A stretch of DNA of 64,000 nucleotides from Vicinamibacterales bacterium (GCA_965222905.1 OZ244976.1:7056020-7120019); one strand, 5' to 3'; counted from the stretch's first letter, positions 1 to 56,489 are shown. Program-made: numbers and translations. The notes: generated by a model from the sequence alone, not told the origin.

Positions 1-948
1 ACAACCGTCGGCGACTGGGCGAAGCTGCCGGATGGCCGTGAATGGGGCTCGACCGGCGGGGTCGACATGGACCGGGACGGGCGTCACGTCTGGGTTGCGG
101 AGCGCTGCGGCGGCAACTCCTGCGCCGGGGTCGACCTCGACCCGGTCCTGAAGTTCGACCCTGAGGGCAACCTCGTCACCAGCTTCGGGGCCGGGCTCAT
201 GATCCAGCCGCACGGACTGCACGTCGATCCGGAGGGCAACGTCTGGGTCACCGACGCGCAGGGCCCCGACGGCGCGAATCCCCACCGCGAGGGGAAGGGC
301 CACGTGGCGATGAAGTTCAGCCCGGAGGGCGAGCTGCTGATGACGCTCGGCACGCCCGGCGTGGGCGCCGCCGGCCAGGACACTCTCGACCAGCCGTGCG
401 ATGTCGTCGTCGCGAACGACGGCACGATCTACGTGGCCGACGGTCACGGCGGCCAGCAACCCGGCGCCGGGCCGCACACGACGGCGCGCGTCGTCAAGTT
501 CGCACCCGATGGGACCTACCTGGCGGAATGGGGCTCGCACGGCAACGGGCCGGGCCAGTTCCGCACGCCGCACGCCATCGATCTCGACTCGCGGGGCCGC
601 GTGGTGGTCGCCGACCGCGGCAACGACCGGCTGCAGGTCTTCGACCCGGACGGCGCGTTCATCGAGGAGTTCCACCAGTACAGCCGGCCGAGCGGTCTGC
701 ACATCGCCGACGACGATACGGTCTACGTCGCCGACTCGGCTTCGTCCCGCGGCGGCCAGCACCCCGGCTGGGAGTACGGCATCCGCGTCGGCAACCTCCG
801 GGACGGATCGCTGGACTGGTTCATCGACGGGTCGAACCCCGAGGGGGTGACCGTCGCTGCCGACGGGACGGTGTACGGCGCCGTCGTGGCGTTCGGAGGC
901 GCCCTCCTCAAGTACGCGCGGCCGGATGCGCCGGGCAACCGACGGTGA
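1..948 (+). CDS. NHL-repeat six-bladed beta-propeller protein (5' end runs off the window)
   Basis: ORF 67..948 stays open in the same frame back to base 1. It has repeated NHL-like blades (PHGLHVDPEGNVWVTD, IYVADGHGG, VVVADRGNDRLQVFDPDG, VYVADSASS) and strong GC3 bias. Confidence 0.7.
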   Translation, partial: TTVGDWAKLPDGREWGSTGGVDMDRDGRHVWVAERCGGNSCAGVDLDPVLKFDPEGNLVTSFGAGLMIQPHGLHVDPEGNVWVTDAQGPDGANPHREGKGHVAMKFSPEGELLMTLGTPGVGAAGQDTLDQPCDVVVANDGTIYVADGHGGQQPGAGPHTTARVVKFAPDGTYLAEWGSHGNGPGQFRTPHAIDLDSRGRVVVADRGNDRLQVFDPDGAFIEEFHQYSRPSGLHIADDDTVYVADSASSRGGQHPGWEYGIRVGNLRDGSLDWFIDGSNPEGVTVAADGTVYGAVVAFGGALLKYARPDAPGNRR

Positions 949-974
949 GCGCGCCGTCAGCCGGTGAGCCTGCC

Positions 975-1380
975 ATGAACGACGGACTTCCGGTCGGTCC
1001 GCTGGTGGCTGAACCTTCTCCCTGCGAGCTGCCGGACGCGCAACCGCTCGAAGGAAGGACCATCCGCCTGGAGCGGCCCGACGCCGCGCGGGACGCCGCT
1101 CCCCTGTTCGACGCGACCCACGGCGAGGACGCCGACCCAGGTCAGTGGACCTACATGGCGTACGGCCCGTTCGAGAGCGCGGACGCCATGCGCTCGGTGA
1201 TGGAGAGCCTCGTCGAGGGCTCGACGGATCCGCAATGGTGGCTCGTCCGCGAGCTGTCTTCGGGGGCCCCGGTAGGCTTGGCGGCGTTCATGAACATGGT
1301 CCCCGATCATCGCCGGCTGGAACTGGGACACATCTGGTACTCGCCCGCGGCACAGAGAACCGCGGTGAACACGGAGACCA
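975..1380 (+). pseudogene. GNAT (RimJ/RimL-type) N-acetyltransferase, 3'-truncated
   Basis: ATG at 975 lies inside track ORF 396..1553. MNDGLPVGP...IRLERPDAARDAAPLFDATHG...WTYMAYGPF...LELGHIWYSPAAQRTAVNTE is a typical GNAT N-half. Similarity stops abruptly after AVNTE (about 1380) and the expected acetyl-CoA-binding half is absent. Confidence 0.55.
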
Positions 1381-1516
1381 GGAAGAACTCGACGGGGTGC
1401 GCTGAACCGCCAATGATTGCAGGTGTATTCCGGCCGCAGGCCGCGAGCCGTTACCACGTTCACGCCCACGTATGGCGTATTAAACGTCAGCCGACAACGG
1501 GCAACGCCGAGCAACC

Positions 1517-1660
1517 TCAGAGCCCGGCCGCGGTCAGCCGCCGGACGATCTGAACTGGCGTGCAGTCGTCGCCGTGGCACTCGGCGAACCCCGCGCAGAT
1601 CACGTCCGTTCCCGGCCAGCCCTCGGAGTGACACGCGCGGGCGCCCCAGGATTGTAGTCG
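1517..1660 (-). CDS. C-terminal fragment of an unidentified Cys/His-rich protein (high GC3)
   Basis: Frame of ORF 1517..1705 reads WGARACHSEGWPGTDVICAGFAECHGDDCTPVQIVRRLTAAGL* with a strong GC3 signal. No recognisable N-terminus; it abuts the low-GC cassette end at 1662. Confidence 0.25.
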   Translation of the reverse strand, partial: RLQSWGARACHSEGWPGTDVICAGFAECHGDDCTPVQIVRRLTAAGL

Positions 1661-1661
1661 C

Positions 1662-1781
1662 TCATCCAAACAGGTCCTTGTACAGGACCTTTTGCGCGTA
1701 GTCAAACAACTGTGTATCTAGCACGAATGTTTCCGTCCCGTCCGCGGACACACCCGCGTATATCAACTCCCGATTCACTAG
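1662..1781 (-). pseudogene. 3' segment of SieB-like membrane protein gene (cassette gene B), separated from its 5' part by the IS1634-like copy 1
   Basis: Minus-strand reading from 1781 gives (L)VNRELIYAGVSADGTETFVLDTQLFDYAQKVLYKDLFG* with TGA at 1662..1664. It joins in frame to 3873..4262 once the IS and one CTAR copy are removed. Composition is lower-GC, like the 5' part. Confidence 0.55.
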
Positions 1782-3868
1782 CCCAAGTTTAACAGCCGCA
1801 GTACTAAGCAACGCGGAATCAGCAACTTACAGCGACAAAAGCGCTCGAGTGGCACTACAAACCTGCGCAAACCGGGAAATGGGTCGGTCAGATGGTTGTC
1901 TTGCGGACGCCTCCCGGTTGCGGGTCGACGCCGAGCGCGTCGTAGATGGCCCGCTGTTCGGGTTCGGCCTGCGTGGCGGTGCGCACGTGCAGGGTGCGCC
2001 CGTCGGGGCGCCGGAAGGTGGCGGTGACGCGCTGCTGGCCTTCGAGGATGCGGCGCAGGGTGGTCCAACTGGCGTGTTCGCCGTGGGCTCGCAGCCGGGT
2101 GCGGATGACCTGCACGAGCTGGTAGGCGATGACGGTGATGAACAGGTGGCCATCGGCCCGCTGCGGCTTGTGGTGGTAGATGGGGCGCAGGCCGAGTTCG
2201 GACTTCAGTGCACGGAAGACGGCTTCGACGTCGGTGAGGGTGGTGTAGGTGCGCCACAAGGCGTCTTCGTCCCAGTCGGTCTCGCTGCTGCGCAGGCAGT
2301 AGACGCCCGGATGGGTGGCCATCGAGCCGTCCTGGGGGCGACGGGTCCAGGTGACGGCGGCGGCCTTCTCGCCGGTCTGGTCGGGGGTGACCTCGATCTG
2401 GTAGTGCTTGGCGACGCGGGTATGCTTGGCTCTCAGTCGCCCAATGCGCTGCCAGACCTGTCCGAGGCGCTTGTGGGCGCGGGGGCGCGCCAGCCCCTCG
2501 TTGAGCGTGGTCAGCGCGGCCTCGAAGCGGGCGGCGGCCCGCTCAACGATGGCCCGCTCCTTGTGGGCCCGCTCTTCGGAGTAGCAGTACAGGCGGACCT
2601 CGCCGGGGTCGGTCGAGACGACCTTGTGCAGATGCACGGTGTGGTTCGACTGCGTGCGGACCGCCACGGCGGCCTCGGCGTCGAACTGCCGGTGGCGTTC
2701 ACGGCTGACGACCAGATAGCGGTAGCGGTTGTCGCGCAGCCACCCGATGGCGGCCTCGGTGGCGACGCCGCGGTCCATCACCACCAGGGCGCCGGCCGGC
2801 GCATCGAGTGCCTCCAGCATGCCGGCCAGGGTGCGGTGTTCCCGGACGTTGCCGGCGAAGACCTGCGAGCGGCGCACGAAGCCGCTGGCGTCGAGCATCA
2901 GGCCCAGGGTCAGCAGCGGACAGTCGCTGCGCTTCTCTTTCGAGTGCCCGCGCTTTGCCTGCGGCTGCGCGCCCGCCTCGCCTTCGAAATAGGTGTTGGT
3001 CAGGTCGTAGAGGGTCACCGTCGGCTGCAGGTCGAACAGTCCCATGGCCCGCTCGAACAGATGCGCCTCGATCGCCTCGCGGTGCTTCACCAGCGCATCC
3101 GAGGCGCGGTAGAGCTGCATCGGGCTGACGGTCTCGAAGTCGACGCCGAGCAACTCGCCGAGGCCGCTGCGTTCCTGCAGCCAGCGGTGCGTGGCGCGCT
3201 CCGAGGCCGGCTGGGCCAGGCGTCCGACGACGGCGCCGGTCGCCGCGGTGCGCAACGCGCCGTTGACGCCCAACTCGGTCAGCAGGGCCGGCAGGCCCAA
3301 TTGCTCCAGGGCCCACAGGCCGACCTGCTTGACGCCGACGCTGCGGGGGCGGACCAGGCGCAACGAGTCGACGTCGACCGGCTGCACGTCTGTCGGCCCG
3401 GCTGCCGGTCCCTGCACCGGTGTGCCGCGGGCGACCAACTGTGCGGCTATGCGCTGCGCTTCGCGTTCGACGGCGGCCGGGCAATCGGCCACCAGGGGCG
3501 TCTGGCCGGCCAGGATGTCGTCGCTGCGGGAGCAGACCAGCGGCCATTGCGCCTGGGGAATGTCGAAGTGGCGTCCGAGATTGAGCAGGGTGCGCTGGCG
3601 GACGGCGTTGCCGATGCGCTCGGAGTGGACGAGGCGATGCGAGAAGTAGGGCTGTCCGTCGGCGGTCCGCCGGGTTTGGGTGCGGCGAATGAACACACGC
3701 CCACGATAGCGGGTGCACGTCCCCAGAAGCAACAACCACTCACACGATTATGGCACTACATTCAGTACCGCCAACACCCGATCCTTTAGAATCAACAAGT
3801 TATGGGGATGCGATCCTCGAAATATCGCCTAAATCTACAAAATTGTCGGGAATCTTGCTAAAGATGGG
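1782..3868 (-). mobile_element. IS1634-family-like insertion sequence, copy 1 (2087 bp)
   Basis: Ends defined by where identity with copy 2 stops. Imperfect terminal IRs are CCCATCTTTAGCAAG / CCCAAGTTTAACAGC. Flanking tetranucleotides are CTAG (1778..1781) and TTAG (3869..3872). One 615-aa DDE transposase. Confidence 0.85.
1888..3735 (-). CDS. IS1634-family DDE transposase (intact, 615 aa)
   Basis: YDLTNTYFEGEAG...KRGHSKEKRSDCPLLTLGLMLDASGFV...FAGNVREHRTL...VVMDRG... is typical of IS1634/IS4-related transposases. An identical-length copy can be reconstructed at 53710..54441 plus 56490..57605. Confidence 0.85.
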   Translation of the reverse strand: MLLLGTCTRYRGRVFIRRTQTRRTADGQPYFSHRLVHSERIGNAVRQRTLLNLGRHFDIPQAQWPLVCSRSDDILAGQTPLVADCPAAVEREAQRIAAQLVARGTPVQGPAAGPTDVQPVDVDSLRLVRPRSVGVKQVGLWALEQLGLPALLTELGVNGALRTAATGAVVGRLAQPASERATHRWLQERSGLGELLGVDFETVSPMQLYRASDALVKHREAIEAHLFERAMGLFDLQPTVTLYDLTNTYFEGEAGAQPQAKRGHSKEKRSDCPLLTLGLMLDASGFVRRSQVFAGNVREHRTLAGMLEALDAPAGALVVMDRGVATEAAIGWLRDNRYRYLVVSRERHRQFDAEAAVAVRTQSNHTVHLHKVVSTDPGEVRLYCYSEERAHKERAIVERAAARFEAALTTLNEGLARPRAHKRLGQVWQRIGRLRAKHTRVAKHYQIEVTPDQTGEKAAAVTWTRRPQDGSMATHPGVYCLRSSETDWDEDALWRTYTTLTDVEAVFRALKSELGLRPIYHHKPQRADGHLFITVIAYQLVQVIRTRLRAHGEHASWTTLRRILEGQQRVTATFRRPDGRTLHVRTATQAEPEQRAIYDALGVDPQPGGVRKTTI

Positions 3869-3872
3869 TTAG

Positions 3873-4262
3873 TGACTCTATTCCGGCGCGCGAGAACGGC
3901 GCTAGATTAGTTTCTGACCATGTAATGACGCTGCCACCGTGCGAAACAAAGCCCTGTACAACGGCCCTCTCTTCGTGCCCGAGCTTGTCGAACAGCTCCT
4001 TGAGCTCGCGCTTGGTGCGGCTGCGTTCTCGTGACCTATTCCAGTAAGAGTGAGCCGCAGAGGCCAGAACCTTGACAATCGGGAATGTGATCATTGCCAC
4101 AAATCCGGCAACCGGCAAATCGTCCCCGTAGAGGTACATGGTTAATCCTGTACCACCTGCAGCGGCGATTGCGATGTTCGTCCCAAAGTCAGCTTCGCCG
4201 TAGATGCGCTCTATCCACTTATCCGGGTTCATGTCGGTCACCAGCTCAAACCATTCGGCCAC
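3873..4262 (-). pseudogene. 5' segment of SieB-like (superinfection-exclusion-like) membrane protein gene (cassette gene B)
   Basis: GTG start at 4262. Two hydrophobic helices (NIAIAAAGGTGLTMYLYG, LPVAGFVAMITFPIVKVLASAA) are followed by ELKELFDKLGHEERAVVQGFVSHGGSVITWSETN. The track ORF 3858..4262 only ends because it reads into the IS terminus. Confidence 0.5.
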
Positions 4263-4283
4263 GTTTCCCGAAGGCGACTATAT

Positions 4284-5701
4284 AGACGTCACCCGACGTC
4301 CGTAGCGCCTCCGCCGCGTGTCCCTTGCTTTTGCCTCATGAACAGGTTGACTCCGTCTAGTGCCAGCCGCACTCGTTTGCGATCGCTGACCTCGTCCCAT
4401 TCGCCGTGGGCAGCGTGGTTCCTTAGGACACTGCGCGAAACTAGTTTGCCATCTGCTGGGTTGCTGGTCATACTGGAGGTATGAAGCGAGACATCGAGCT
4501 GGAAGCGACCCTGGTTGCGAAGTATGCCGTGGTCGCGCCCGTGTTGGACGAGCGCAGTCGCCGCCGGTGGGCGGCGGCCGAGTCGCTCGCCATCGGCTAC
4601 GGCGGCGACGCGGTGGTTTCGTCGGCCACCGGTGTGGCTCGGGAGACGATTCGCAAGGGGCGCCGGGAGATTGCCCGCGACGAGGCGCCGACGGACCGCA
4701 TCCGACGCCCTGGCGGCGGACGGCCCCGCATCCAGCAGGATCAACCCGGCATCCAGGCCGCGCTCCAAGCGCTGGTGGATCCGCTCACGCGCGGCGACCC
4801 GACCTCGCCGCTGCGCTGGACGTGCAAGAGTCGCGCGAAGCTGGCGGCGGCGCTGACCGAGCAGGGGTGGCGGGTGAGTTCGACCACTGTGGGCCGGCTG
4901 CTGCACCGCCTGGGCTACCGGCTGCAATCGCCGCGCAAACGGCAGGAAGGCGCCACGCATCCGGACCGCAACGCGCAGTTCGAGCACATCAACCAGACCG
5001 CGGACGAGCATCTGACCGCCGGCCAGCCGGTGATCTCGGTCGACACGAAGAAGAAGGAGCTGGTCGGGAACTTCAAGAACGGCGGGCGGGAATGGCAGCC
5101 GAAGGGCACGCCGCCGGCGGTGCTGGTGCATGATTTCCCGACCGACGCCGAGGGCAAGGCGATTCCGTACGGCGTCTACGACATGGCGCGCAACGAAGCC
5201 TGGGTGAGCGTGGGCTGGGACCACGACACACCGGCCTTCGCGGTGGCGTCGATTCGACACTGGTGGCATCAGATGGGTTGCGGCGCCTACCCCGAGGCCA
5301 CGACCCTGTTCATCACGGCCGATGCGGGCGGGAGCAACGGGTATCGGTTGCGCGCCTGGAAGCATGAGCTTCAACAGTTGGCCGACGAGACCGGACTGAC
5401 CATCGAGGTGAGTCATTTTCCACCCGGCACCAGTAAGTGGAACAAGATCGAGCACCGGCTCTTCTGTCACATCACGGCGAACTGGCGCGGCACCCCGCTG
5501 ACGACGTATGAGACCATCGTCGACCGCATCGGGAACGTCCGGACGGCAACCGGGCTCCGGGTCCGGGCCGAACTCGACGCCGGGCAGTACCCCACGGGCG
5601 TTACGGTGACCAAGGAACAGATGGACGCACTCGCGCTGGTCCGCGATGAGTTTCACGGGGAATGGAATTACAAACTGTTACCCCGACCAAGTTGAAGACT
5701 T
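4284..5701 (+). mobile_element. ISAzo13-family insertion sequence (about 1418 bp)
   Basis: Flanked directly by an exact 5-bp direct repeat TATAT (4279..4283 and 5702..5706). Weak terminal IRs (AGACGTCA / AAGTCTTCA). A high-GC insert inside a lower-GC cassette. Confidence 0.7.
4481..5695 (+). CDS. ISAzo13-family transposase (DDE_Tnp_ISAZ013-like), 404 aa
   Basis: RRRWAAAESLAIGYGG...RIRRPGGGRP...LRWTCKS...HPDRNAQFEHIN...ISVDTKKKELVGNFKNGGREW...FITADAGGSNGYRLRAWK...VSHFPPGTSKWNKIEHRLF is the hallmark sequence of this family. Confidence 0.9.
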   Translation: MKRDIELEATLVAKYAVVAPVLDERSRRRWAAAESLAIGYGGDAVVSSATGVARETIRKGRREIARDEAPTDRIRRPGGGRPRIQQDQPGIQAALQALVDPLTRGDPTSPLRWTCKSRAKLAAALTEQGWRVSSTTVGRLLHRLGYRLQSPRKRQEGATHPDRNAQFEHINQTADEHLTAGQPVISVDTKKKELVGNFKNGGREWQPKGTPPAVLVHDFPTDAEGKAIPYGVYDMARNEAWVSVGWDHDTPAFAVASIRHWWHQMGCGAYPEATTLFITADAGGSNGYRLRAWKHELQQLADETGLTIEVSHFPPGTSKWNKIEHRLFCHITANWRGTPLTTYETIVDRIGNVRTATGLRVRAELDAGQYPTGVTVTKEQMDALALVRDEFHGEWNYKLLPRPS

Positions 5702-6250
5702 TATATCGATCACTGTCCTTACGCCAGCCCACGAGGTGATGTCCTTCACGTCCTGTTTAGAGATCAGCTCAGCGCCGCGCAGAGCCTTGCTGTAGGCGTC
5801 TATTCCAGGCTTCGACTTTCCGATAGACAAAGACTCTGCCTCGACCCACGTCCTCAGAAACTCCTCAAGGCAGGCGCCGATGAGTATCGCGGCGGCGGCT
5901 GGATGATACTTGGCGTCCTCAAGTAGCGAATTGGCTTGTCCCAAGAGATCGGAAACGACGTCCAACTGCGCCTGTCGCTCGGGCGATACTCCCGTCGTTA
6001 GGCCAGCCTGAAGGTACTCGATGAACGAATCCAGGGCCGAAACAAGCGTCGCAACCATATAGCTTGCGTTCCCTGGAGCAGCCTCAGCCAGTTTCAGGAA
6101 AGCACTCTTGGGGCCGGCATAGTTCCGAAGGAACTCGCAAACCTGGGCCTGGGCGGCCCATCCGTGGTTGCCATCCCCTTCACGCTGCGCGTACCCGCGA
6201 ATACGTGCTTGCAGGCTTCCGGCTTCTCGGATGATCTCTTCTGTGTCCAT
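5702..6250 (-). pseudogene. Cassette gene A: unknown protein with DUF4145/HEPN-like layout, 3' end displaced by the ISAzo13 insertion
   Basis: Track ORF 5678..6250; GGAGG sits 8 nt upstream of the ATG at 6250. The C-terminal part HPAAAAILIGACLEEFL...IDAYSKALRGAELISKQDVKDITSWAGVR resembles DUF4145/HEPN architecture, but no R-x4-6-H motif is seen. Removing the IS and one TATAT copy restores ...VIDIVAFGKRGRMV*, which overlaps the gene B start. Confidence 0.45.
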
Positions 6251-6257
6251 ATGCCTG

Positions 6258-6280
6258 CCTCCAGAGTCCGCCTCTGGAGG
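6258..6280. promoter_or_regulatory. 9-bp stem hairpin (CCTCCAGAG-tccgc-CTCTGGAGG) overlapping the gene A Shine-Dalgarno
   Basis: Read directly from the sequence. It lies between the stop of the Cys-rich ORF (6333) and the gene A start (6250). On the minus strand the 3' arm contains the GGAGG ribosome-binding site. Confidence 0.3.
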
Positions 6281-6332
6281 ACGAACGCCAGGATCCTAGC
6301 GCATGCGGGCCGGGGGCGGTCGGCGAACGGCC

Positions 6333-6860
6333 CTACGACGAATCCGCGCGGGCCGCCCGCCGCGTCCGATACGCCGCCGTAGAGTCCGCCGCGCGGCGCC
6401 GGCAGCGGGCGCACAGCTTCCGGTCGGCTGGACGGTCGCGCTCGCCGCCGCATTCGGGACACCGCCCGGCCGCGGTCCGCCGTTGGCGCCGCTCGGCGAG
6501 GTAGTCCCGGTGCGCTTGCTGCCCGGTAGCGAGAACGCCCGGATGGGCCAGCCGGTAGCGTTGCGTGGTGTCCGCCAGGCGCCGCCGGCAGCGTTTGCAA
6601 TTCACTCGGTCGGCTCGGTCCCGGCGCCGTCCGCAGTTGCACAGTCCGACCGCGCGGTACCGTTCACGGGCGCCGGGCGTGCCGGGCGGGAGCGGTAGCC
6701 GGCGCGGATTGTAAACGCTGGCATAGTCGGGCAGCCGCTCCGGGCGGGCGATGCAGATGCGGCAGATCCACGCGGGGCCGGCGATGCCGGGGCGGGCGCC
6801 GCACCGCGTACACCATGAGCCGTTCGGTAGCCGCTCCGGCCGCTCGACAATAGCGATCAT
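6333..6860 (-). CDS. Cys-rich multi-zinc-ribbon protein (phage-associated, function unknown)
   Basis: Probable start MIAIVERPE at 6860 within track ORF 6333..6965. Repeated CxxC pairs (CTRCG, CRIC, CNCG, CKRC, CPECG, CARC). Lies directly downstream of the portal gene. Confidence 0.4.
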   Translation of the reverse strand: MIAIVERPERLPNGSWCTRCGARPGIAGPAWICRICIARPERLPDYASVYNPRRLPLPPGTPGARERYRAVGLCNCGRRRDRADRVNCKRCRRRLADTTQRYRLAHPGVLATGQQAHRDYLAERRQRRTAAGRCPECGGERDRPADRKLCARCRRRAADSTAAYRTRRAARADSS

Positions 6861-6989
6861 CGGCGAGCCTTTCGCCGGCAGCGTGCACAGCGGGCGTGAC
6901 CGTCGGTCGTCGGTCTCGGGCAGTCGATGCACAACCCGGCCGCCTTGCGGCGAGCCCGGAAGCAATCGTCGGACAGCCGATCCAGGTCG

Positions 6990-8103
6990 TCAGCCATCGG
7001 CCCAACCCGTGAGCAGCATTGCATCGTCGGTGGATACGCCTGCTTTCGACAGGGCGCCCACGGCGCGCGCTCGAGCCGCCAAGTCCGCCATCCCGGACGG
7101 CCGGCCGTACGCGAGACTCACGGGCCGCTCGAGCACGCACGACAGTTCTTCCGCGATGACGGCGCCGAGCGGCTGAATCGTCATCGTCCACAGACGGCGG
7201 GCTGCTTCCCGCGCGGCGGTCCCGTCGGTCAGTCCGCCCGGTCCGAGCGGCGCCGGGACACCGAAGCACGCCAGCACCGAATCCTCTACATGCCGGCGAA
7301 GCTGGATCAGAGCTTGCGGCGGATCGGCGCCGAGCCGTTGCGGTTCGAAGTCTCGCCGCGGCGGTCTGGCGTTCGGATCGCCGTTCCAGTTGTCGGCCGT
7401 GGTCTCGGGTAGCAGGGTGCGGCCCTTGGCGGTACGGATCACTTCCGCCAGGTTGTCGGACGGCAGCGGATCATCCTGCGGTAGCGGTTCGCCGTCGTCG
7501 CCGGTCTCGGTCGGCGGCTGGCCGTTGAATCCCGCCGGCAGCGTAATCAGGTTCGCCACGGCGCCGCCGGCCTCAAACCCGAGCGACTGCTCAAGGCTCG
7601 CCGTCAAGGTGCCCGTCAGGGCAGCGTATTGCAGCGGCGAGATACCGCGGGCCGGGCTGTGCGTCTCGGTCGCGTAGCGGACGTGGACAACACTCGACGC
7701 GGGCGCCGTCACGGTTCGTGTGGTGCGCGGTCCCGTGACGGTCAGTCGATACCACCAATCCGCCGGATCGGGACCGTCGCCCCACACGTCCGTTGTCGTG
7801 GCCCGTAGCAGCCGCATACCGCCCCGTGGCGCCACGTCAAGCAGGTAGACGGCCTGACCTGACCATGCCGGGCCAGGGCGCGGCCGGTCTCGGCCAGCCA
7901 GCGCGGCCCTACAGGGACGCCGTGCACCGCGGCCGTGCACAGTGAACGCGCCCACAGTCCCGCGGCGGTTCGACGGCGCCGGCGGCCCACGTCTGCGCCG
8001 TCGACGTACCAACCGCGGCCGTGAGCAGGTTGATCGCCAGCGATGTTGCGTCCGTGCGAATCTCGGGACGGCGCGGCGGCTGGCCGATGCCCAATTCGAT
8101 CAT
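6990..8103 (-). pseudogene. Phage portal protein (HK97/GTA-type), N-terminal third broken by several frameshifts
   Basis: The C-terminal 270 aa are intact in ORF 6990..8012 (LLRATTTDVWGDGPDPADWWYRLTVTGP...VVHVRYA...ACFGVPAPLGPGG...RRLWTMTIQP). The N-terminal pieces lie in two other frames: MIELGIGQ... from the ATG at 8103, and TAAGLWARS...RWLAETGRALARHGQ in ORF 7742..7990. Confidence 0.75.
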
Positions 8104-8445
8104 GCGGTCCGCCTCACGTACGGCGCCAGCAACGCGGCGGCGCCCGACTGACGGACCGCGCCCCGCGGCTGCCGGCGACAAGTCCATCTGCACGCCACCG
8201 ACTTTCACGCGGCCGGACTGCGCGCCGAACGTCCGCCGGTCCTGCACGTGCCCGGCAGTCCGGATCACCGCCTCGTCTCGCACCGCGGCCGGGCAGTCGG
8301 TACCGCCCCGCAGGTAGGCGTCCACCAGCGGGCCGGCGATGGCGAGCAGCCGCGTAGCTTCCACGATGCCGGTGTCCGTGTCGTCGGCCGCATCGGCTAC
8401 GGTGATGCCAAGCGCCGCGGCGAGCGTTGCGGCCGTTGCAGCCAT
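8102..8445 (-). pseudogene. Head-tail adaptor/connector (gp6-like), frameshifted near the 3' end
   Basis: MAATAATLAAALGI...PAAVRDEAVIRTAGHVQD (ORF 7909..8445). The expected C-terminus AVRQSGAAALLAPYVRRTA* is in another frame, and its TGA overlaps the portal ATG as ATGA at 8100..8103. Confidence 0.45.
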
Positions 8446-8951
8446 CGCAGGATGCCGCGTAGGGGCGGGCGGTCAGGGGCGCCGGTACGGACTTCGACCG
8501 ACGTGCTCGGGTAGGACGGATCGTCGGTCAGGGCCGCACCGTCTAGGCGCGCCTCAGTGACGACTCGGCGCCCGCCCTGGCGATGCTCGCGCAGGCTGTG
8601 AAACTCGACACTGAGTCCGCTGTAGACGGGCGATTCGGCGCGCATCAATTCGGCCAGGTCTCGCGCGGCGGTCGTGTTCGGGAGCGGGCTGTCGATGCGA
8701 ACCTCGTCACCGTCGACCGTCGGCACGGCGCGCAGGATGGGCGGCTGCACGCTGCCGCGGGCCGGGCTGCTCGCGTGCTCAAGGTCGATCCGGATGCCGT
8801 TGTCAGGCCAGCGCAGGGCGCCGGGTGCGAAGACTTCCCCGCCGTGCTGGCCCGGCGAGCCGTAGCGCATCAATGTCCCGGTCAGACGTCCCGGCGAGTC
8901 GCCGGCACCGTCGCGTAATTCAACAGCTGCGTGGAATCGTGTCGTCTTCAT
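8397..8951 (-). CDS. HK97-family prohead (head maturation) protease
   Basis: MKTTRFHAAVELRD...GRLTGTLMRYG...EVFAPGALRW...IRIDLEHASSPARG...GLSVEF fits the Peptidase_S78 pattern. AAGGAA RBS sits upstream of the ATG at 8951 (track ORF 8397..8996). Confidence 0.7.
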   Translation of the reverse strand: MKTTRFHAAVELRDGAGDSPGRLTGTLMRYGSPGQHGGEVFAPGALRWPDNGIRIDLEHASSPARGSVQPPILRAVPTVDGDEVRIDSPLPNTTAARDLAELMRAESPVYSGLSVEFHSLREHRQGGRRVVTEARLDGAALTDDPSYPSTSVEVRTGAPDRPPLRGILRWLQRPQRSPRRLASP

Positions 8952-9085
8952 ACTCGGTTCCTTTTCGGCTCGGGCGGGGGCGCGCGGAATGGACAAACAC
9001 GCACCGCCCGCCTCCTACCTCGCCTCCTACCCGCGGCCCCTGGTACAAAAGCCACGGGCGCCGACGTGCTATCGACACGACCTTG

Positions 9086-10270
9086 CTACGCGAGTTTGAC
9101 TTTCGTCCGCACGAAACCGGCCGGCCGAAGCACCTTGAAGTTGTGCAGGGCGACGGCCGTTACCTGAATCTGGCCCTTGTCGGCGTTCGTGATTTCGTCA
9201 CGAATGAGTTTGAGACCTTCCCAGATCGGGCATACCGCGTTCATGCCATCCGCGGCGCCCAGCTTCGCGAGAATGCCGGATTGGATCTGACCGCTCGCCG
9301 CGGGAATGTTGGCGCTCGCCATGAAGTCACGCAAGATGCGGCGCAACCGCTCGGTCGCTGACGTACTGTCGTTGGCCTGAATCAATCCGACCAGGGCTTG
9401 GTACGTCGTCGTGCCGATCACCCATGCACACTCGTTTTCACCGCCAGCGAAAACGCCATCCACGCCCCGCGCGGCCTGTTCGGCCGCCTTGGCGAAGTCG
9501 ATGACGTCGCCCGGATCCGCGTAGTCGGGAATCCCGCCGTTGGCTGCCGTCGCCAGGAACCCGCGAACGGTCGCACTGCCGGCGCCGATTAATTGCTTGT
9601 CGAGCTGATCGGCGATGGTCAACCGCAAGTCTTCGGTCAGGGCCGCATCAAGCCCCATCGTCGTCATCTCGTCTTCGATGCGGAATTGAACGCGCGCCTG
9701 TACGCGCTTGGGCAGGAGCACGTTCGGCCCGATGACACCGGCCTCGGCGTCCTTCTCGCCGTCGGCGGCGACGAACGCGGCGGCCGGCCCGGTCGTGATG
9801 ATCGGATACAATGCCTGCCCGACTCCGACACTCGGCATCATGACACCGAGTCGGGCCACAGCCGCACGACTGAACACCCGCTGGAGGATCGCCGCCTGAT
9901 TGACCGGGTTCCCGCTCGCCGGGGCCGGCGTCACGGCATCGGCGCGCAGCTCGGCCGCGGCCGGTGGGGGCGGCAGCATGACGTCCCAAGGGACGTGATT
10001 CTGCGACAGCCCGCGATGCTCGGCCAGCTCGTTTTCGGCGCCGTCCACTTGTCCGCCGTCGGCGAACGCCGTCAGGTAACGCCCGAGAGACACGCGGCCC
10101 TGCAAGTCGCGCAACGCGCGGGTCTCCGCGTCCGGTTCGTCGGCGCCGCCGCGGGTCTCGGCCGCGCGTAGCTCCGCGTCTTCGGCGATCAGAGCGGCCC
10201 GGTGCCGAGTCTCGACGTTCCCGTACTCGGTCGTGAGCTTGTCCGCTTCGGTGCGGATCTCCGGTGTCAT
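9086..10270 (-). CDS. HK97-type major capsid protein
   Basis: 394-aa ORF with an N-terminal coiled delta-like region (EIRTEADKLTTEYGNVETRHRAALIAE) and a capsid fold region (...YPIITTG...VQFRIEDEMT...WEGLKLIRDEIT...). A capsid-like extension continues upstream to the ATG at 10354 but is cut by a TAG at 10346..10348. Confidence 0.85.
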   Translation of the reverse strand: MTPEIRTEADKLTTEYGNVETRHRAALIAEDAELRAAETRGGADEPDAETRALRDLQGRVSLGRYLTAFADGGQVDGAENELAEHRGLSQNHVPWDVMLPPPPAAAELRADAVTPAPASGNPVNQAAILQRVFSRAAVARLGVMMPSVGVGQALYPIITTGPAAAFVAADGEKDAEAGVIGPNVLLPKRVQARVQFRIEDEMTTMGLDAALTEDLRLTIADQLDKQLIGAGSATVRGFLATAANGGIPDYADPGDVIDFAKAAEQAARGVDGVFAGGENECAWVIGTTTYQALVGLIQANDSTSATERLRRILRDFMASANIPAASGQIQSGILAKLGAADGMNAVCPIWEGLKLIRDEITNADKGQIQVTAVALHNFKVLRPAGFVRTKVKLA

Positions 10271-10371
10271 CGCATCGTCGGCGAGCCCGGCAATCTCGGC
10301 CAGGCGCGTACGGATCTCGGATGCGCGAATCTGGTGTTGCTGGCTCTAGGTCATAAGCAGACGTTATCACA

Positions 10372-10434
10372 AGAACGGAATCAGGTTATAGAACGGAATC
10401 CGGACCCTCTTGAAAGACAACCCTACCAGTAGGG
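10372..10434. promoter_or_regulatory. Candidate operator/promoter region between the capsid gene and a divergent small ORF
   Basis: 11-bp direct repeat AGAACGGAATC at 10372..10382 and 10390..10400, plus palindrome CCCTAC-ca-GTAGGG at 10421..10434, in a locally AT-rich intergenic stretch. Confidence 0.3.
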
Positions 10435-10447
10435 TATATTTAGGAGC

Positions 10448-10618
10448 ATGAGCATTGCGGATTGGCTCGCATTGGGGAATTTTGGGTTGACGGCATTCGT
10501 TGCGTACGGCGTGTTCCGGTTGAACAGCAAGTTCGACACGCTCAAGGGCCGCGTAGACGAACAAGGCGAGAATCAACGGGCGCACGTCAACGCGGCCGGC
10601 CTGCACGCGCAACGCTAG
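10448..10618 (+). CDS. Small membrane protein (56 aa, below the ORF-track cut-off), probably 3'-truncated by IS-A
   Basis: AGGAG sits 7 nt upstream of the ATG at 10448. Translation is MSIADWLALGNFGLTAFVAYGVFRLNSKFDTLKGRVDEQGENQRAHVNAAGLHAQR*. Its TAG (10616..10618) is supplied by the CTAG terminus of the adjacent IS. Confidence 0.35.
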   Translation: MSIADWLALGNFGLTAFVAYGVFRLNSKFDTLKGRVDEQGENQRAHVNAAGLHAQR

Positions 10619-10679
10619 CCCTGCCTTGTACCCGCATTCAGGGCTGGACAAATCAGCTTCCGCCGTGTAGCGTCACGGC

Positions 10680-13073: not shown

Positions 13074-13091
13074 TGTGGGTACAGGGCAGCG

Positions 13092-13330
13092 CTAGCCGTC
13101 CGCCAGGCGCCGCGCGAGTTCGGCGCGCCACTCGGACCGATCCGGCCCCGGCCGGCGCCCATCCGCGGCGCAGTGGCACGGACGGCACAGCGGGCGCAGG
13201 TTCGCCGGCCGGTCGTCGTTCGGGTCTCCGTTGACATGGTGCAATTCGAGCCGGCCGGCCCGGCCGCACTCGGCGCAACCCCAGCCGGCAGCGTCCATGA
13301 GGCGGCGCCGTAGCCGTTGTGTACGGCGAG
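13092..13330 (-). pseudogene. HNH endonuclease domain (phage-type); upstream part unclear, stop codon supplied by the IS-A terminus
   Basis: C-terminus of ORF 13092..13601: WGCAECGRAGRLELHHVNGDPNDDRPANLRPLCRPCH. The TAG at 13092..13094 lies inside the IS-A CTAG end. The N-terminal region overlaps the AlpA frame, so the gene structure is degraded. Confidence 0.55.
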
Positions 13331-13399
13331 CCCGGCCGCGCCGCGCCGTCCAAGTATCTCCGGGACAAACGGCCCGTCGCCGTAAATCGTGATCGCCAG

Positions 13400-13567
13400 A
13401 AACCGGCCGTTCTTCGCCGAGACCGACGAACGCATGCCGGCAACCGCGGCCCGGTGCCGTTCCTGTAACACGCGCGGGAAGTCGCCGGACTTCTCCCAGT
13501 CCCATATCGAAGTCCGGGAGTAAGACGTTCGCTTGATGACGTCCTTGACGGTGATTAGCTGCTCCAT
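13400..13567 (-). CDS. AlpA-like (prophage CP4-57 regulatory / excisionase-type) helix-turn-helix protein; 3' boundary uncertain
   Basis: MEQLITVKDVIKRTSYSRTSIWDWEKSGDFPRVL...AAVAGMRSSV matches the AlpA HTH pattern. The track ORF 13061..13567 lacks a natural stop and runs on into the HNH region and the IS. Confidence 0.55.
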
Positions 13568-13626
13568 GCTGTGATGATACGCGGCTGTGGATGCGTGTCA
13601 AATAAGAATCGAGTATGGTTCGTGCT

Positions 13627-13648
13627 CATACCCCAATAATGGGGTATG
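13627..13648. promoter_or_regulatory. Palindrome CATACCCC-aataat-GGGGTATG upstream of the AlpA-like gene
   Basis: 8-bp arms read directly from the sequence. A further GGGGTATA half-site lies at 13672..13679, and a related GGGTATAT at 10432..10439 sits in the capsid-upstream region. Confidence 0.3.
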
Positions 13649-13783
13649 CGTCAGTCACGGTTATTATTACCGGGGTATAACTTAGAACTGACAAACGGGT
13701 GCTCCGGGAACCAACACGCCCGTACGCAACGAACCCCGCCGAGCGGGGGCGGGGTCCCTGCCGGGGGCGCCGGGGCCGGGCGC

Positions 13784-21533: not shown

Positions 21534-21535
21534 CC

Positions 21536-54441: not shown

Positions 54442-54604
54442 CAGCCCTTTCAAGGTGCTAATTGATACTCATACAAGGACTTAGTCATTAGCCAGGCTTC
54501 TGCGGCTGCCAGAGAAGGGCACGGTCGGCTTGCTCGCTTGGCGTTTGGAGGGGCCTCCGCGTCGGGCGTGATGCGCCGTTCCAATCCCAGAAACCGCTGG
54601 ACAT

Positions 54605-56059
54605 TTGCACCTCCGATCGCCAGACTCGTCTGGGAGAGCGCCTCTCTCGATGGGCGCGATTGGAGGTGCCATGGTACTGGATGCGTTTTTCCGCCGAGCC
54701 AGCGAGACGTTTCCGATCCCGGTGATGCTGCGAGCGCTGCTCGAACGCGTCTTCGAACCCGCCCGCCTCAACGACTGGTTCGAGGCCGTCACCGAGAAGC
54801 AGTATACGCGGGAGCTGCTGTTCTCGTCGGCGTTCGAGCTGATGAGTGTGGTGGTCTTCAAAGCCTTTGGGAGTGTCCATGCCGCGTATCAGGCGAAGCG
54901 GACGGCGGGGGAGATCACGGTCTCCGTCACGTCGGTGTACAACAAGCTCAACGGCGTGGAGGCCCAGACCTCCCGGGCGTTGGTGCGCGACACCGCGGGG
55001 CACCTCCGCCACCTCGTCGAGGACGTGCAGGGGGGCTGTCGCCCGTGGCTGCCGGGCTATCGGGTGAAAGTCCTGGATGGGAACTGCATTGCAGCGACGG
55101 AGCATCGCCTGCAGGTGTTGCGCACCACCGCCGCGGGACCGCTGCCAGGCAAGGCGCTGGTGGTCTATGACCCGGCGGTGGAGATGGCGATCGATGTCTT
55201 CCCGTGCGAAGACGGGCACGCACAAGAACGGGCCCTGTTGGGCGAGGTGGTGCCGACGGTCCAAGCGGGCGATCTCTGGATCATGGATCGCAATTTCTGC
55301 GTCCGTGCGTTCCTGGCCGGCATCGAGACCCGCGCCGGCACATTCCTGTGCCGCTACCACAAAGGCCTGCCGGTGACCGCGCTGGCGCCGGCGCGGTTCG
55401 TGGGGTCGATCGAGACCGGGGAAGTGTATGAACAGCAGGTCGAAGTCCTCATGGCGCCGCGCCCGGGCGAGGACGCGGACGACGTCCGCATCTATCGCCT
55501 GGTCCGGGTCGAACTCACCCGTGCGACCCGCGGCGGCGACAAGACCTTGCTCCTGCTGACCGACCTGTCGAAGTCGGCCGCCACGGGGAAGCAAGTCGCG
55601 GAGCTGTATCGGCGGCGGTGGACGATTGAGACGATGTTCCAGCAGCTGGAAGCGCACCTGCACTCGGAAGTGAACACGCTCGGGTATCCCGCGGCCGCCC
55701 TGTTCGCGTTCTGCGTCGCGCTCGTGGCCTATAACGTGCTGGCGGTGGTGAAGGGGGCCCTTCGCGGCCTGCACGGCGAGCAGACGATCCACGACAGGGT
55801 CTCCGGCTACTACATCGCGGGCGAGATCGGCCGGACCTATGAAGCGCTGCTGGGGTTCGTCCCGGCCGACCAGTGGACGCAGGTGCAGGCCCTCTCGCAT
55901 GAAGCCTTCCTCACGCTTCTTATGGGGCTTGCCCGGGCGGTGGATCTGGCGAAGTACCGCAAGCATCCCCGCGGGCCCAAGAAGCCGAAGCCCAAGCGCA
56001 CCATGCATGCCGGCCAGCCCCACGTTTCCACCGCCAAGCTCTTGGGGAAGAAACGATGA
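54605..56059 (+). CDS. IS4-family DDE transposase
   Basis: VKVLDGNCI, LWIMDRNF and YRRRWTIETMFQQLEAHL (the Y-R-E signature). The true start may be an internal Met (54650 or 54671). Confidence 0.8.
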   Translation: MHLRSPDSSGRAPLSMGAIGGAMVLDAFFRRASETFPIPVMLRALLERVFEPARLNDWFEAVTEKQYTRELLFSSAFELMSVVVFKAFGSVHAAYQAKRTAGEITVSVTSVYNKLNGVEAQTSRALVRDTAGHLRHLVEDVQGGCRPWLPGYRVKVLDGNCIAATEHRLQVLRTTAAGPLPGKALVVYDPAVEMAIDVFPCEDGHAQERALLGEVVPTVQAGDLWIMDRNFCVRAFLAGIETRAGTFLCRYHKGLPVTALAPARFVGSIETGEVYEQQVEVLMAPRPGEDADDVRIYRLVRVELTRATRGGDKTLLLLTDLSKSAATGKQVAELYRRRWTIETMFQQLEAHLHSEVNTLGYPAAALFAFCVALVAYNVLAVVKGALRGLHGEQTIHDRVSGYYIAGEIGRTYEALLGFVPADQWTQVQALSHEAFLTLLMGLARAVDLAKYRKHPRGPKKPKPKRTMHAGQPHVSTAKLLGKKR

Positions 56060-56301
56060 CACTCCCACGCGACTCGGAGGGGCCCAGGAGCTACCGGCAC
56101 GTCTCGTCCTCAACCGTGGCGGCGATTACCTATGAGCGCTCGACGCGCACGCTCGGGATCCGCTTTCAGCGCGGCGCTGAGTACCGGTATTTCTCCGTTC
56201 CTGAGACGGTCTACCTCGAGTTGCGCTCTGCGGATTCCAAAGGGCGATACTTCAACGCTCGGATACGAGATGCTGGGTATACGTGTCAGCGGGTACACTA
56301 G
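56056..56301 (+). CDS. KTSC-domain protein (passenger gene inside the IS4-family element)
   Basis: VSSSTVAAITYERSTRTLGIRFQRGAEYRYFSVPETVYLELRSADSKGRYFNARIR matches the KTSC domain pattern. The ATGA start/stop overlaps the transposase gene. Confidence 0.7.
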   Translation: MTLPRDSEGPRSYRHVSSSTVAAITYERSTRTLGIRFQRGAEYRYFSVPETVYLELRSADSKGRYFNARIRDAGYTCQRVH

Positions 56302-56478: not shown

Positions 56479-56489
56479 CCCTCTACGAC
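56479..56489. repeat. 11-bp target-site duplication CCCTCTACGAC (right copy)
   Basis: See 54431..54441. Confidence 0.9.

Follow-up and report, generated by a model that had tools for sequence, protein, structure and literature searches.

The window analysed here is a stretch of 64 kb from a Vicinamibacterales bacterium. Two adjacent genes on its minus strand, designated gene A and gene B, are each interrupted by an insertion sequence (IS) (Table 1). The initial annotation had described the pair as lower in GC than its surroundings and as interrupted by two different IS elements, and both observations hold. The GC content is 0.595 for repaired gene A and 0.542 for repaired gene B, compared with about 0.70 in the flanks. 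The IS in gene A encodes an ISAzo13-family transposase (PF07592, E 1.5e-140) and has the terminal inverted repeat GGACA[C/G]TG, with ends GGACAC and GGACAG. The transposase of the IS in gene B matches the general DDE_Tnp_1 domain only (E 4e-11); the element, formerly called IS1634-like, is placed in the IS4 superfamily. An inverted second copy that is 100% identical is found at positions 53573–54447 and 56479–57714, and both copies are flanked by CTA/TAG.

Table 1. Features at and around the two interrupted genes (positions are those of the window)
Feature	Position	Strand	Description
GNAT acetyltransferase gene, 5' two thirds	975..1380	+	Acetyltransf_3 match
Gene B 3' part, (L)VNRELIYAGVSADGTETFVLDTQLFDYAQKVLYKDLFG*	1662..1781	-	stop 1662-1664; in-frame join gives the homologues' invariant IESL-xNR motif
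IS4-superfamily IS	1782..3869	-	2088 bp; transposase 1888..3735; TAG duplication 1779-1781 and 3870-3872
Gene B 5' part	3870..4262	-	two hydrophobic segments, basic linker and first two thirds of predicted winged-helix domain
Gene A 3' part, ...RNHAAHGEWDEVSDRKRVRLALDGVNLFMRQKQGTRGGGATDVG*	4289..4425	-	stop 4289-4291; histidine half of HEPN R-x4-H motif
ISAzo13-family IS	4426..5718	+	1293 bp; transposase 4481..5695; TTA duplication 4423-4425 and 5719-5721
Gene A 5' part	5722..6250	-	codons 1-176 and first base of codon 177; ORF from ATG 6250
Phage head-gene cluster remnant	6990..10270	-	Pfam and PHROGs matches; context, outside the two genes
Portal	6990..8012	-	within head-gene remnant
Unassigned ORF of head-gene remnant	7909..8445	-	
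S78 prohead protease	8397..8996	-	within head-gene remnant
Capsid	9086..10270	-	within head-gene remnant

The boundaries of gene A differ from those first drawn. The initial repair, which removed 4284–5701 and one copy of a TATAT repeat, is wrong; it yields a protein of 193 aa in which the final 15 residues have no counterpart in any homologue. Intact homologues of about 212 aa have a different C-terminus, ...SWAGVRNHAAHGEWDEVSDRNRIRLMLEGVNLFMRQKQG, and this tail is encoded at 4425–4289 on the minus strand, inside the supposed IS. The segment aligns to the C-termini of 44 homologues and joins the 5' part in frame to give a repaired gene A of 221 aa. Metagenomic contig L008 is a natural empty site. 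It is 100% identical over the 5' part and 100%/99.3% identical across the junction, and it encodes a 221-aa protein, P0158, to which the repaired product is identical. This empty site proves the repair and confirms the limits of the ISAzo13 copy (GGACAC.../...ACTGTCC), although the repeated stretch can be read as up to 6 nt, TCCTTA. The TATAT repeat at the earlier junction is coincidental. The restored stop codon is 26 nt ahead of GTG 4262 and 56 nt ahead of ATG 4232, the two candidate starts of gene B, so the genes do not overlap as had been supposed. A hairpin at about 6258–6281 sequesters the Shine-Dalgarno sequence of gene A. It is not kept beyond the closest strains and was rejected as a conserved feature of the gene.

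The repair of gene B, in contrast, was placed correctly. The joined sequence, ...AGIESL/VNREL... (slash at the junction), matches 14 homologues, and G127, I128, S130 and L131 are invariant. The duplication is better read as a 3-bp TAG with the IS ending at 3869 than as the CTAR tetranucleotide and IS end at 3868 that were first given. Other joins, which remove 1 or 7 nt, are in frame but misfit the invariant motif. The likely start is ATG 4232 (MNPDKW...), with GTG 4262 as an alternative; homologues begin MNxxRW. Contigs L008 and L071 carry this insertion as well.

A synteny comparison shows that homology to a related Vicinamibacterales chromosome, OZ219745, stops at position 1380, inside the GNAT gene. 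This is the left border of the incoming segment with gene B, a segment whose arrival removed part of the GNAT gene. On the other side, the head-gene remnant is truncated by a Tn5-like IS that begins at 10680, and the window's gene B copy adjoins this remnant. The two genes had been regarded as a moron downstream of phage head genes. Head genes are indeed present, and small portal remnants adjoin gene A in contigs L004 and L062. However, IMG/VR scans show no relative of gene A or of gene B, and OZ219745 keeps gene A without the head-gene cluster. A defence island was also considered and rejected, as the rest of the window consists of IS elements and ordinary metabolic genes (multicopper oxidase, tannase, spermidine synthase-TPR and polysaccharide deacetylase). 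There are no tRNA genes in the 64-kb window and thus no tRNA-type attachment site.

HEPN proteins carry an R-x4-6-H motif, usually R-N/D/H-x3-H, where helix 3 ends and, near this motif, a conserved acidic residue in helix 2, and the superfamily is characterized by metal-independent RNase activity. The motif had not been seen in gene A in the initial annotation, but it is present as R178-N179-H-A-A-H183. Across 45 sequences of the gene A family, no variation occurs at R178, N179, H183, E129 or E130. The mis-drawn IS boundary had hidden the motif: the ISAzo13 insertion separates R178 from N179-x3-H183, and the gene A product of the window therefore cannot be catalytic. E129/E130 fall within the 5' part, which covers the N-terminal four-helix region and the larger share of the HEPN domain. 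By hhalign, these two residues align with the LEK/LET positions of DUF4145 proteins.

The AF2 model of gene A has a mean pLDDT of 86, with values >90 over residues 100–210, and together with Foldseek it predicts a four-helix up-and-down HEPN bundle. The best PDB matches by Foldseek are HEPN domains and toxins (1ylm, 7ae8, 2hsb, 1o3u and 6m6u), with probabilities of 0.97–1.0 and TM-scores up to 0.74 normalised to the target, but with weak E-values of 0.06–1. Alignment by hhalign to two DUF4145-annotated proteins gives probabilities of 98.4% (E 1e-14) and 97.0% (E 9e-11), and tblastn against such proteins gives E values of 6e-8 and 2e-4. The earlier DUF4145/HEPN assignment is supported by these alignments and structural matches. 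The Pfam DUF4145 model (PF13643) does not score the full 221 aa in hmmscan at E up to 10, where the sole return is HEPN_RiboL-PSP (E 0.021, 15 bits). Pfam HEPN_AbiU2 does not match gene A, and a sequence search with a gene A profile matches none of the PDB chains, 3jrt included. PADLOC, a check first suggested for the repaired genes in the initial annotation, returns no match for gene A or gene B, nor do PHROGs and NCBIfam. Values of dN/dS between relatives of gene A are 0.18–0.38, which indicates purifying selection.

These comparisons and the model suggest that gene A is a divergent DUF4145-type HEPN protein, in which an N-terminal helical region (residues 1–88) is followed by the HEPN domain. 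It shares with DUF4145 the predicted HEPN fold and an upstream LEE acidic helix, and its W-A-G-x-R-N-x-A-A-H-G segment corresponds in the alignments to WADIRNKAAHGEF and IAGIRNSAAHGK from plasmid proteins annotated as DUF4145. Identity over the domain is only 29–33%, however, and the Pfam model does not detect gene A. Unlike DUF4145 proteins, gene A has its own conserved N-terminal helical region of ~90 residues and no fusion to restriction-modification or TM modules. In structure, its HEPN domain is best matched by HEPN-MNT (HepT-MntA) type II/VII toxin-antitoxin proteins (7ae8, 6m6u, 7bxo and 5yep). Gene A is ~80 residues longer at the N-terminus than these HEPN proteins, and no nucleotidyltransferase gene adjoins it in any of about 60 loci.

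Many bacterial phyla and also archaea contain homologues of gene A, and the GC content of gene A is low relative to every host. An attC-like site is directly beside the homologue in 11 of 54 non-redundant loci (about 20%), where about 2 are expected. The scan used our own pattern-plus-fold method (R'' RYYYAAC ... R' GTTRRRY, paired ends). A homologue in Aquabacterium is found in a cassette of ~790 bp within an array of ~24 attC-like sites (26 in a relaxed scan), and cassettes of this size are too short for anything besides gene A. The family is thus mobile as integron cassettes. The window's own copy is not in an integron, and the whole 64-kb window has no attC-like site. Gene A has no conserved neighbour; when the ORFs around it were clustered, the only groups that formed came from redundant copies of one genome. 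In its closest relatives the adjacent slot holds other genes or none. A TIR/NDT-like protein adjoins gene A in OZ219745, and relatives carry other defence-like genes there, so that a lineage-specific functional coupling of gene A with its neighbour may exist.

Protection against phage has been demonstrated for single-gene HEPN integron cassettes, some of which act by growth arrest (bioRxiv 10.1101/2024.07.02.601686; 10.64898/2026.03.17.712381). Single-gene HEPN abortive-infection and integron-cassette proteins (the PDB 3jrt family, Esos and an AbiU2-HEPN cassette) are, like gene A, small, stand-alone and partnerless. The integron-cassette proteins are cassette-borne (PMC3710099), as are the attC-flanked homologues of gene A. 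The differences are the lack of a 3jrt or HEPN_AbiU2 match and the position of the window copy outside any integron. The gene A branch travels as a one-gene integron cassette, and this makes it a good candidate for an abortive-infection RNase of minimal, single-protein type. Gene A would be a triggered enzyme with the mode of action of other HEPN RNases, toxins or abortive-infection proteins, that consist of a single protein. A pair of HEPN domains would dimerise, with the R178-N-x3-H183 motifs and E129/E130 forming the RNase site, and the N-terminal region may keep the protein silent until a trigger arrives.

Gene B has a Pfam match to SieB (PF14163) at residues 52–120, with an E value of 2.7e-5 and 24.2 bits, which is below the cut-off of 26. 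The same sub-threshold match is given by 13 of 15 members of the gene B family (best E 7.2e-6), and more distant members show 16–23 bits or no match. Hydropathy analysis reveals a strong hydrophobic segment at residues 49–70 and a weaker Gly/Ala-rich one at 26–44. In the AF2 model helices are followed by a winged helix; the pLDDT is 64.5 overall, with low confidence in the membrane part. The sub-threshold PF14163 match, the two hydrophobic segments and the layout of lambda SieB agree with the initial description of gene B as SieB-like with two N-terminal TM helices. An hhalign comparison to lambda SieB alone is weak (E 0.028). A gene B profile against PDB sequences gave noise only, a BFVD search gave generic winged-helix matches only, and a scan of JGI metagenomes for gene B gave one 2.4-kb contig without usable context.

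SieB of P22 and lambda and gene B have the same elements in the same order: two N-terminal hydrophobic segments, a basic linker and a helix-rich cytoplasmic domain. Lambda SieB and gene B also share the pattern L-[TG]-x-E-E...G...V-x-[TS]...I-x-[SE]-L-[IV]. A homologue with 40% identity is present in the temperate coliphage Ayreon between the tail-fibre and integrase genes, a moron position; another adjoins a type III restriction-modification system. On the other hand, every gene B family member tested is below the Pfam cut-off, most are in bacterial chromosomes and none is found in IMG/VR. On these sequence and model features gene B is a putative SieB-like membrane protein, probably of the inner membrane, where two hydrophobic segments and a basic linker would precede a cytoplasmic MarR-like winged helix. 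SieB, a prophage gene that is expressed in the lysogen, aborts the lytic growth of a superinfecting phage while an internal product, Esc, protects the carrier; P22 and lambda are the only phages for which this phenotype is known (PMC10883804). Gene B may similarly halt a superinfecting phage midway through its cycle. In the window, the IS4-type element removes its last 38 residues, which correspond to the wing and terminal helix of the model. An anti-phage role has candidate status for both genes.

The initial annotation had considered the two genes to be a candidate two-component exclusion or abortive-infection module that was inactivated twice; such a module could combine, e.g., a HEPN effector with a membrane sensor. 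They are co-directional and only 26–56 nt apart, both are low in GC, and both are defence-like and IS-hit. Nevertheless, gene B is beside gene A in 0 of 54 non-redundant gene A loci, and gene A is present in 0 of 4 independent gene B loci, these four being the whole of the gene B side of the test. The module reading fails because the homologues are never adjacent; both genes occur together only in the window and in the near-identical strain contig L008. The gene A family is also far larger (472 versus 37 matches), gene A is alone in the ~790-bp cassettes, the slot beside it is variable or empty in the closest relatives, and gene B came with the segment that truncated the GNAT gene. A joint module is highly improbable, and genes A and B are probably unrelated mobile single genes. 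Alternatively, gene A may be a toxin whose antitoxin, a small adjoining ORF or RNA, was missed. It may then serve to stabilise mobile DNA or to cause addiction to it, and not to defend against phage. MNT antitoxins accompany many HEPN proteins that are toxins, and these are the best structural matches of gene A; integron arrays are rich in toxin-antitoxin cassettes (PMC3710099), and several loci have 250–550 nt with no called gene upstream of gene A. This explanation is nonetheless improbable, as there is no conserved neighbouring ORF, the upstream regions are unconserved across taxa save for attC cores, Rfam has no match within positions 1–11000, and the cassettes leave no room for a second gene. 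An RNA-processing or stress-dormancy role has been proposed for integron HEPN cassettes (PMC3710099), and a housekeeping or stress function of this kind, in place of an anti-phage one, would make the loss of gene A neutral. It would fit the purifying selection on gene A at a syntenic chromosomal site in Vicinamibacterales relatives without phage genes, and its absence from IMG/VR and from 50,697 phage genomes. We consider it unlikely in view of the patchy distribution over both domains of life, the variable and often mobile or defence-like neighbourhoods and the low GC, which are typical of accessory conflict genes, and in view of the repeated loss of gene A within one population.

A further question is whether positive selection favoured the insertions because they silenced genes that were costly or autoimmune. 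Near-identical strains show three different forms of gene A that are disrupted or deleted, the IS in gene A sits precisely within the catalytic motif, and the gene B insertion is in all three assemblies. The double IS hit had also been considered unusual. However, the window holds at least six IS copies, one nested inside another, and the density of target sequences in the low-GC cassette exceeds that in the rest of the window 4 times for TTA, 3.2 times for TAG and 12 times for CTAG. Intact (L008), interrupted and mostly deleted alleles of gene A coexist among near-identical strains, and the intact allele still circulates. In such an IS-dense region, with TTA and TAG enriched 3–4 times, the double hit needs no special explanation. 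Target availability in an IS-rich genome would be the simplest account; the cost of carrying such genes possibly helps, while selection as the main cause has perhaps a modest chance of being correct. The locus represents ordinary decay of two independent candidate abortive-infection genes. It is probable that these are two horizontally mobile single-gene modules that became neighbours by chance and that both are being lost to IS activity.

Part of the gene B family has a C-terminal feature that resembles the tail of SSB. A third of the full-length members (40 of 120) end ...PF after the winged-helix domain, about ten end D-[DE]-I-P-F, and one ends ...DFDDDIPF. This tail is absent from lambda SieB, and the window's gene B ends ...KDLFG, without the SSB-like motif. 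The TIR/NDT-like protein beside gene A in OZ219745 ends ...EDDIPF. The acidic tip of SSB recruits ExoI, RecQ, PriA, the chi subunit and other proteins. The SieB-like family could be a membrane-tethered mimic of the SSB C-terminal tail, a speculative idea that we regard as doubtful.

The window itself matters little, as it represents routine IS-driven erosion of two accessory genes. What it provides is the correction of a mis-drawn IS boundary and, with it, the recovery of a catalytic motif. Gene A and its homologues form a branch of DUF4145-type HEPN proteins that is uncatalogued and for which there is no Pfam, NCBIfam or PADLOC model, and this branch is strongly conserved, with 44–50% identity between bacteria and archaea. 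The gene B family has a testable representative in a temperate phage of E. coli K-12, Ayreon gene SJJBTUD_0023. To our knowledge, the mechanism of SieB has been an open question since the 1990s. If the SSB-like tail is functional, the gene B family would sense or sequester SSB-tail-binding proteins of host or phage at the membrane, and this would be the first molecular handle on SieB-type exclusion.

The region at 1662-6250 contains two minus-strand genes of lower GC content, gene A, which encodes a DUF4145-type HEPN-like protein, and gene B, which encodes a SieB-like membrane protein. They probably represent two independent, stand-alone candidate abortive-infection genes, each of which has been inactivated by an IS element. 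After repair the GC content is 0.595 for gene A and 0.542 for gene B, compared with approximately 0.70 in the flanks and 0.673 in the window, in agreement with the initial annotation.

Features of the two-gene region and of other parts of the window
Feature	Position	Strand	Details
Segment shared with L004	1546-1645		100 bp; overlaps a minus-strand ORF (62 aa) whose end is rich in Cys and His
Repaired gene B	3873..4262 plus 1662..1781	-	product ends ...AGIESLVNRELIYAGVSADGTETFVLDTQLFDYAQKVLYKDLFG, followed by the stop
IS4-type element	1782..3869		3-bp TAG duplication
DDE_Tnp_1 transposase of the IS4-type element	1888..3735		615 aa
ISAzo13-family element	4426..5718		ends GGACAC... and ...ACTGTCC; TTA duplication
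ISAzo13-family transposase	4481..5695		PF07592, E 1.5e-140
Repaired gene A	6250..5722 plus 4425..4289	-	221 aa; stop 4289-4291
Hairpin	6258-6281		9-bp stem, CCTCCAGAG-GCGGA-CTCTGGAGG (coding strand)
Cys-rich ORF	6333-6965	-	210 aa; many CxxC pairs and Arg
Portal, unassigned ORF, S78 protease and capsid genes	6990-10270	-	upstream of gene A, beyond the Cys-rich ORF
Tn5-like transposase gene	10680-13073		N-terminal Druantia DruA domain (PF14236, E 2e-24) fused to Tnp_DNA_bind, DDE and Tn5 dimerisation domains
Second Tn5-like transposase gene	23613-25799		diverged from the first, 71-75% DNA identity
Direct segmental duplication	21492-22499 and 63128-64000		91-99% identity; covers part of a polysaccharide-deacetylase-containing ORF; second copy runs past the window end
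Second copy of the IS4-type element	53573-54447 plus 56479-57714		inverted, 100% identical
Insertion in the second copy	54448-56478		~2.0 kb; inverted ends GGGCTTTCAAGGTGC.../...GCACCTTGAAAGGGC; duplicated target ~12-17 bp
ORF within that insertion	54488..56113		541 aa; no Pfam match

Gene A homologues are about 212 aa in length, and past ...DITSWAGVR their sequence runs NHAAHGEWDEVSDRNRIRLMLEGVNLFMRQKQG. The window encodes exactly this tail at 4425..4289 on the minus strand, a segment that had been assigned to the IS, and the earlier repair of the gene is thus wrong. The exact TATAT duplication described for it is a coincidence. The actual duplication is TTA, and the flanking repeat allows a reading of up to 6 nt (TCCTTA). 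Given its stop position, the repaired gene does not overlap gene B, contrary to the original proposal. The corrected repair is proved by a natural empty site in L008, an 8-kb metagenome contig that is without the ISAzo13 copy and has 100% and 99.3% identity to the window on either side of the junction. It encodes P0158, exactly the repaired 221-aa protein. The hairpin listed in the table directly precedes the start of gene A, with the GGAGG Shine-Dalgarno sequence within its 3' arm; a comparison of the upstream regions of homologues shows no conservation outside the closest strains.

The original repair of gene B is correct. Residues G127, I128, S130 and L131 at the junction are invariant in an alignment with 14 homologues, and downstream of it TETFVLDTQLFDYAQ fits the homologue consensus. 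Most homologues begin MNxxRW, which makes ATG 4232 (159 aa) a likelier start than GTG 4262. CTA/TAG flanks both copies of the IS4-type element, and this sets the element limits and TAG duplication shown in the table. Gene B is already interrupted by this element in L008 and also in L071, a contig (ERZ25072076) from a third near-identical strain. In L071 just 182 bp of gene A is left, fused near 4282; the deletion runs from 5997 to ~4282 and takes in the ISAzo13 site. At the contig end (L071 1-1626) gene A is bordered, at window position ~6179, by a transposase-like ORF of 471 aa. The L071 arrangement may be an assembly chimera. The interruption of gene B is therefore older or fixed, whereas gene A is disappearing by several routes within one population.

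The gene A family is large, with 472 matches in a 90%-clustered protein set, none of which carries a Pfam domain. Pfam analysis of gene A itself gives nothing beyond a 15-bit HEPN_RiboL-PSP match, there are no matches in NCBIfam or PADLOC, and the family profile finds none among PDB sequences. The family shows strong conservation, and R178, N179, H183, E129 and E130 are invariant in a comparison of 45 sequences. The R-N-H-A-A-H segment is the HEPN R-x4-H motif, which the ISAzo13-family element splits between R178 and N179...H183. The initial annotation saw no R-x4-6-H motif because its IS limits were wrong. The AlphaFold model (mean pLDDT 86, >90 over residues 100-210) places a helical bundle after an N-terminal helical region. 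The best Foldseek matches in the PDB are HEPN domains and toxins, i.e., YutE (1ylm), a HEPN toxin (7ae8/7ae9) and AF_0298 (2hsb), with further matches to TM0613 (1o3u), HepT (6m6u/7bxo) and SO_3166 (5yep). The probabilities are 0.97-1.0, but the E-values are 0.06-1. A tblastn search of plasmids returned proteins annotated as "DUF4145 domain-containing". When two of these were compared with the gene A profile by hhalign, the probabilities were 98.4% (E 1e-14, 165 columns) and 97% (E 9e-11), and WAGiRNhAAHGeW was placed opposite WADIRNKAAHGEF and IAGIRNSAAHGK. This places gene A on a divergent branch of DUF4145-type HEPN proteins, and the original family assignment was right. The dN/dS of gene A between Vicinamibacterales relatives is 0.18-0.38.

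Gene A homologues, at 40-80% identity, were found at 54 non-redundant species-representative loci in many phyla. The hosts include Vicinamibacterales and other Acidobacteriota, Planctomycetota, Methylomirabilis, Chloroflexota, Nitrospira, Gemmatimonadota, Gamma- and Betaproteobacteria, Bacteroidota, Cyanobacteria, Clostridia and Actinomycetota, as well as the archaeal ANME-1 and Methanobacteria. In every host the homologue is 4-16 GC points under its own locus. The Pfam-annotated genes around it vary from locus to locus, and many are of mobile or defence-like type (integrase, MobA, HicA, NYN, Hypoth_Ymh, ISL3, Uma2, Gp49). No neighbouring ORF family recurs across the loci compared, and no MNT partner was found beside gene A. 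There is no gene A match in either phage collection (IMG/VR; 50,697 phage genomes).

In unrelated taxa GTTAGGC is located 25-45 nt ahead of the gene A start codon, often preceded by GCCTAAC. The two motifs correspond to the R' (GTTRRRY) and R'' (RYYYAAC) cores of integron attC sites. A pattern-plus-fold scan places an attC-like site directly adjoining gene A at 11 of the 54 loci, versus ~2 expected from a background density of ~0.08 attC-like sites per kb. In Aquabacterium sp. CECT 9606 (L019 1-16528) the homologue is in a ~790-bp cassette of a chromosomal integron-like array with ~24 attC-like sites by strict scan, or 26 by relaxed scan, spaced 0.5-0.9 kb apart. Three to six such sites are also present around the homologues of an Acidobacteriaceae MAG, a second Aquabacterium and a Cyanobium (L018, L022 and L040). 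The 64-kb window has no attC-like site, so its copy of gene A lies outside any integron. HEPN proteins borne by integrons are a recognised class (PMC3710099; PDB 3jrt), although a profile search gives no sequence relationship between gene A and 3jrt. Two single-gene HEPN cassettes, Esos (bioRxiv 10.1101/2024.07.02.601686) and an AbiU2-HEPN dimer (bioRxiv 10.64898/2026.03.17.712381), were shown to protect against phage via growth arrest.

The gene B family is small (37 matches in the clustered set; 166 representatives at 50% identity). The proposed resemblance to SieB is supported. Repaired gene B matches Pfam SieB with E 2.7e-5, at 24.2 bits where the cut-off is 26, and the same sub-threshold match is found in 13 of 15 relatives; among more distant members the score falls to 16-23 bits or there is no match. 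A strong hydrophobic segment at 49-70 is preceded by a weaker Gly/Ala-rich one and followed by a basic linker. The C-terminal domain model (pLDDT ~80) matches MarR-like winged helices such as 3lfk (probability 1.0; 86 columns aligned at an rmsd of 3.0 A). The parts follow one another in the same order in lambda SieB, which also shows a similar pattern, L-T-x-E-E...G...V-x-T...I-S-E-L-I. One clear homologue is present among 50,697 phage genomes (tblastn, 40% identity, 92% of query, E 1e-20). It is SJJBTUD_0023 of Ayreon, a lambda-like temperate coliphage, and is located between the side tail fibre and integrase genes with annotated terminators after it, which is a classic moron slot. Other homologues adjoin a type III restriction-modification system or a DUF5681 phage gene, or sit among IS elements. 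Of 120 full-length family members (within proteins P0003-P0282), 40 end in ...PF and about ten in D-[DE]-I-P-F. P0192 ends ...DFDDDIPF, which matches the acidic tip at the C-terminus of bacterial SSB. In the window protein, whose C-terminus is encoded at 1662-1700, the end is ...KDLFG instead.

The initial annotation proposed that genes A and B form a two-component module. A tblastn of the loci compared found both only in L008, the window's strain; L071, which was outside that scan, carries gene B with the gene A fragment. Gene B is absent from the other gene A loci (0 of 54 non-redundant loci), and gene A is absent from all 4 independent gene B loci. The two genes thus occur together only in near-identical strain contigs, and a joint module is very improbable. 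Comparison with relatives points to gene B as a recent arrival beside a resident gene A, given the variable content of the slot. The gene order in OZ219745, a Vicinamibacterales chromosome, is NHL - (Uma2) - GNAT - 249-aa gene - gene A. Homology of the window GNAT gene ends at 1380, and ~0.8 kb with gene B replaces the 3' part of GNAT and the 249-aa gene. In L004 an unrelated 127-aa gene is in this slot. The gene for the 249-aa protein (6723-7472 of L005, the OZ219745 locus) is convergent with the gene A homologue. The protein has sub-threshold N-terminal TIR_2 and Nuc_deoxyrib_tr matches; towards the C-terminus it can be aligned, weakly, to the winged helix of gene B, and its last residues are ...EDDIPF. 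The segment shared with L004 has 96% identity to intergenic DNA there, located downstream of both the gene A homologue and the 127-aa gene, far above the ~85% of neighbouring genes.

The phage head genes may bear on the origin of gene A. On the coding strand their order is capsid, protease, unassigned ORF and portal, the reverse of the usual portal-protease-capsid. A Tn5-like IS cuts the cluster at 10680, and no terminase or tail genes are adjacent to it. OZ219745 is without window 6823-17060, yet has gene A and 570 bp upstream. About 570 bp of the Cys-rich ORF is conserved beside gene A there, where no gene was called. The ORF, which directly adjoins gene A on its upstream side, has no match in Pfam or PHROGs. 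Small portal fragments adjoin gene A in L004 and L062, so gene A may have arrived in the lineage on a phage-like element, which later decayed while gene A was kept. The rest of the window consists of IS copies and ordinary metabolic genes, with no defence island.

Two IS insertions in one gene pair had been considered unusual. At least six IS copies are present in the window, and one of them lies inside another. The target duplication is TTA for the ISAzo13 copy and TAG at both copies of the IS4-type element, and compared with the rest of the window the region is 4x denser in TTA, 3.2x in TAG and 12x in CTAG. This enrichment of target triplets in a low-GC island of a 70%-GC genome would most simply account for both insertions. 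Selection against costly genes may add to the pattern, given the three states of gene A, and is not needed as an explanation.

The original observation is confirmed in part and its interpretation supported in part. The corrected IS limits are of importance in that the wrong limits hid the HEPN motif. From its fold, motif and family resemblance, gene A would act as a HEPN RNase. The fold and family resemblance of gene B suggest a SieB-like exclusion mechanism; SieB acts on a superinfecting phage partway through its cycle, bringing macromolecular synthesis to a halt (PMC10883804).
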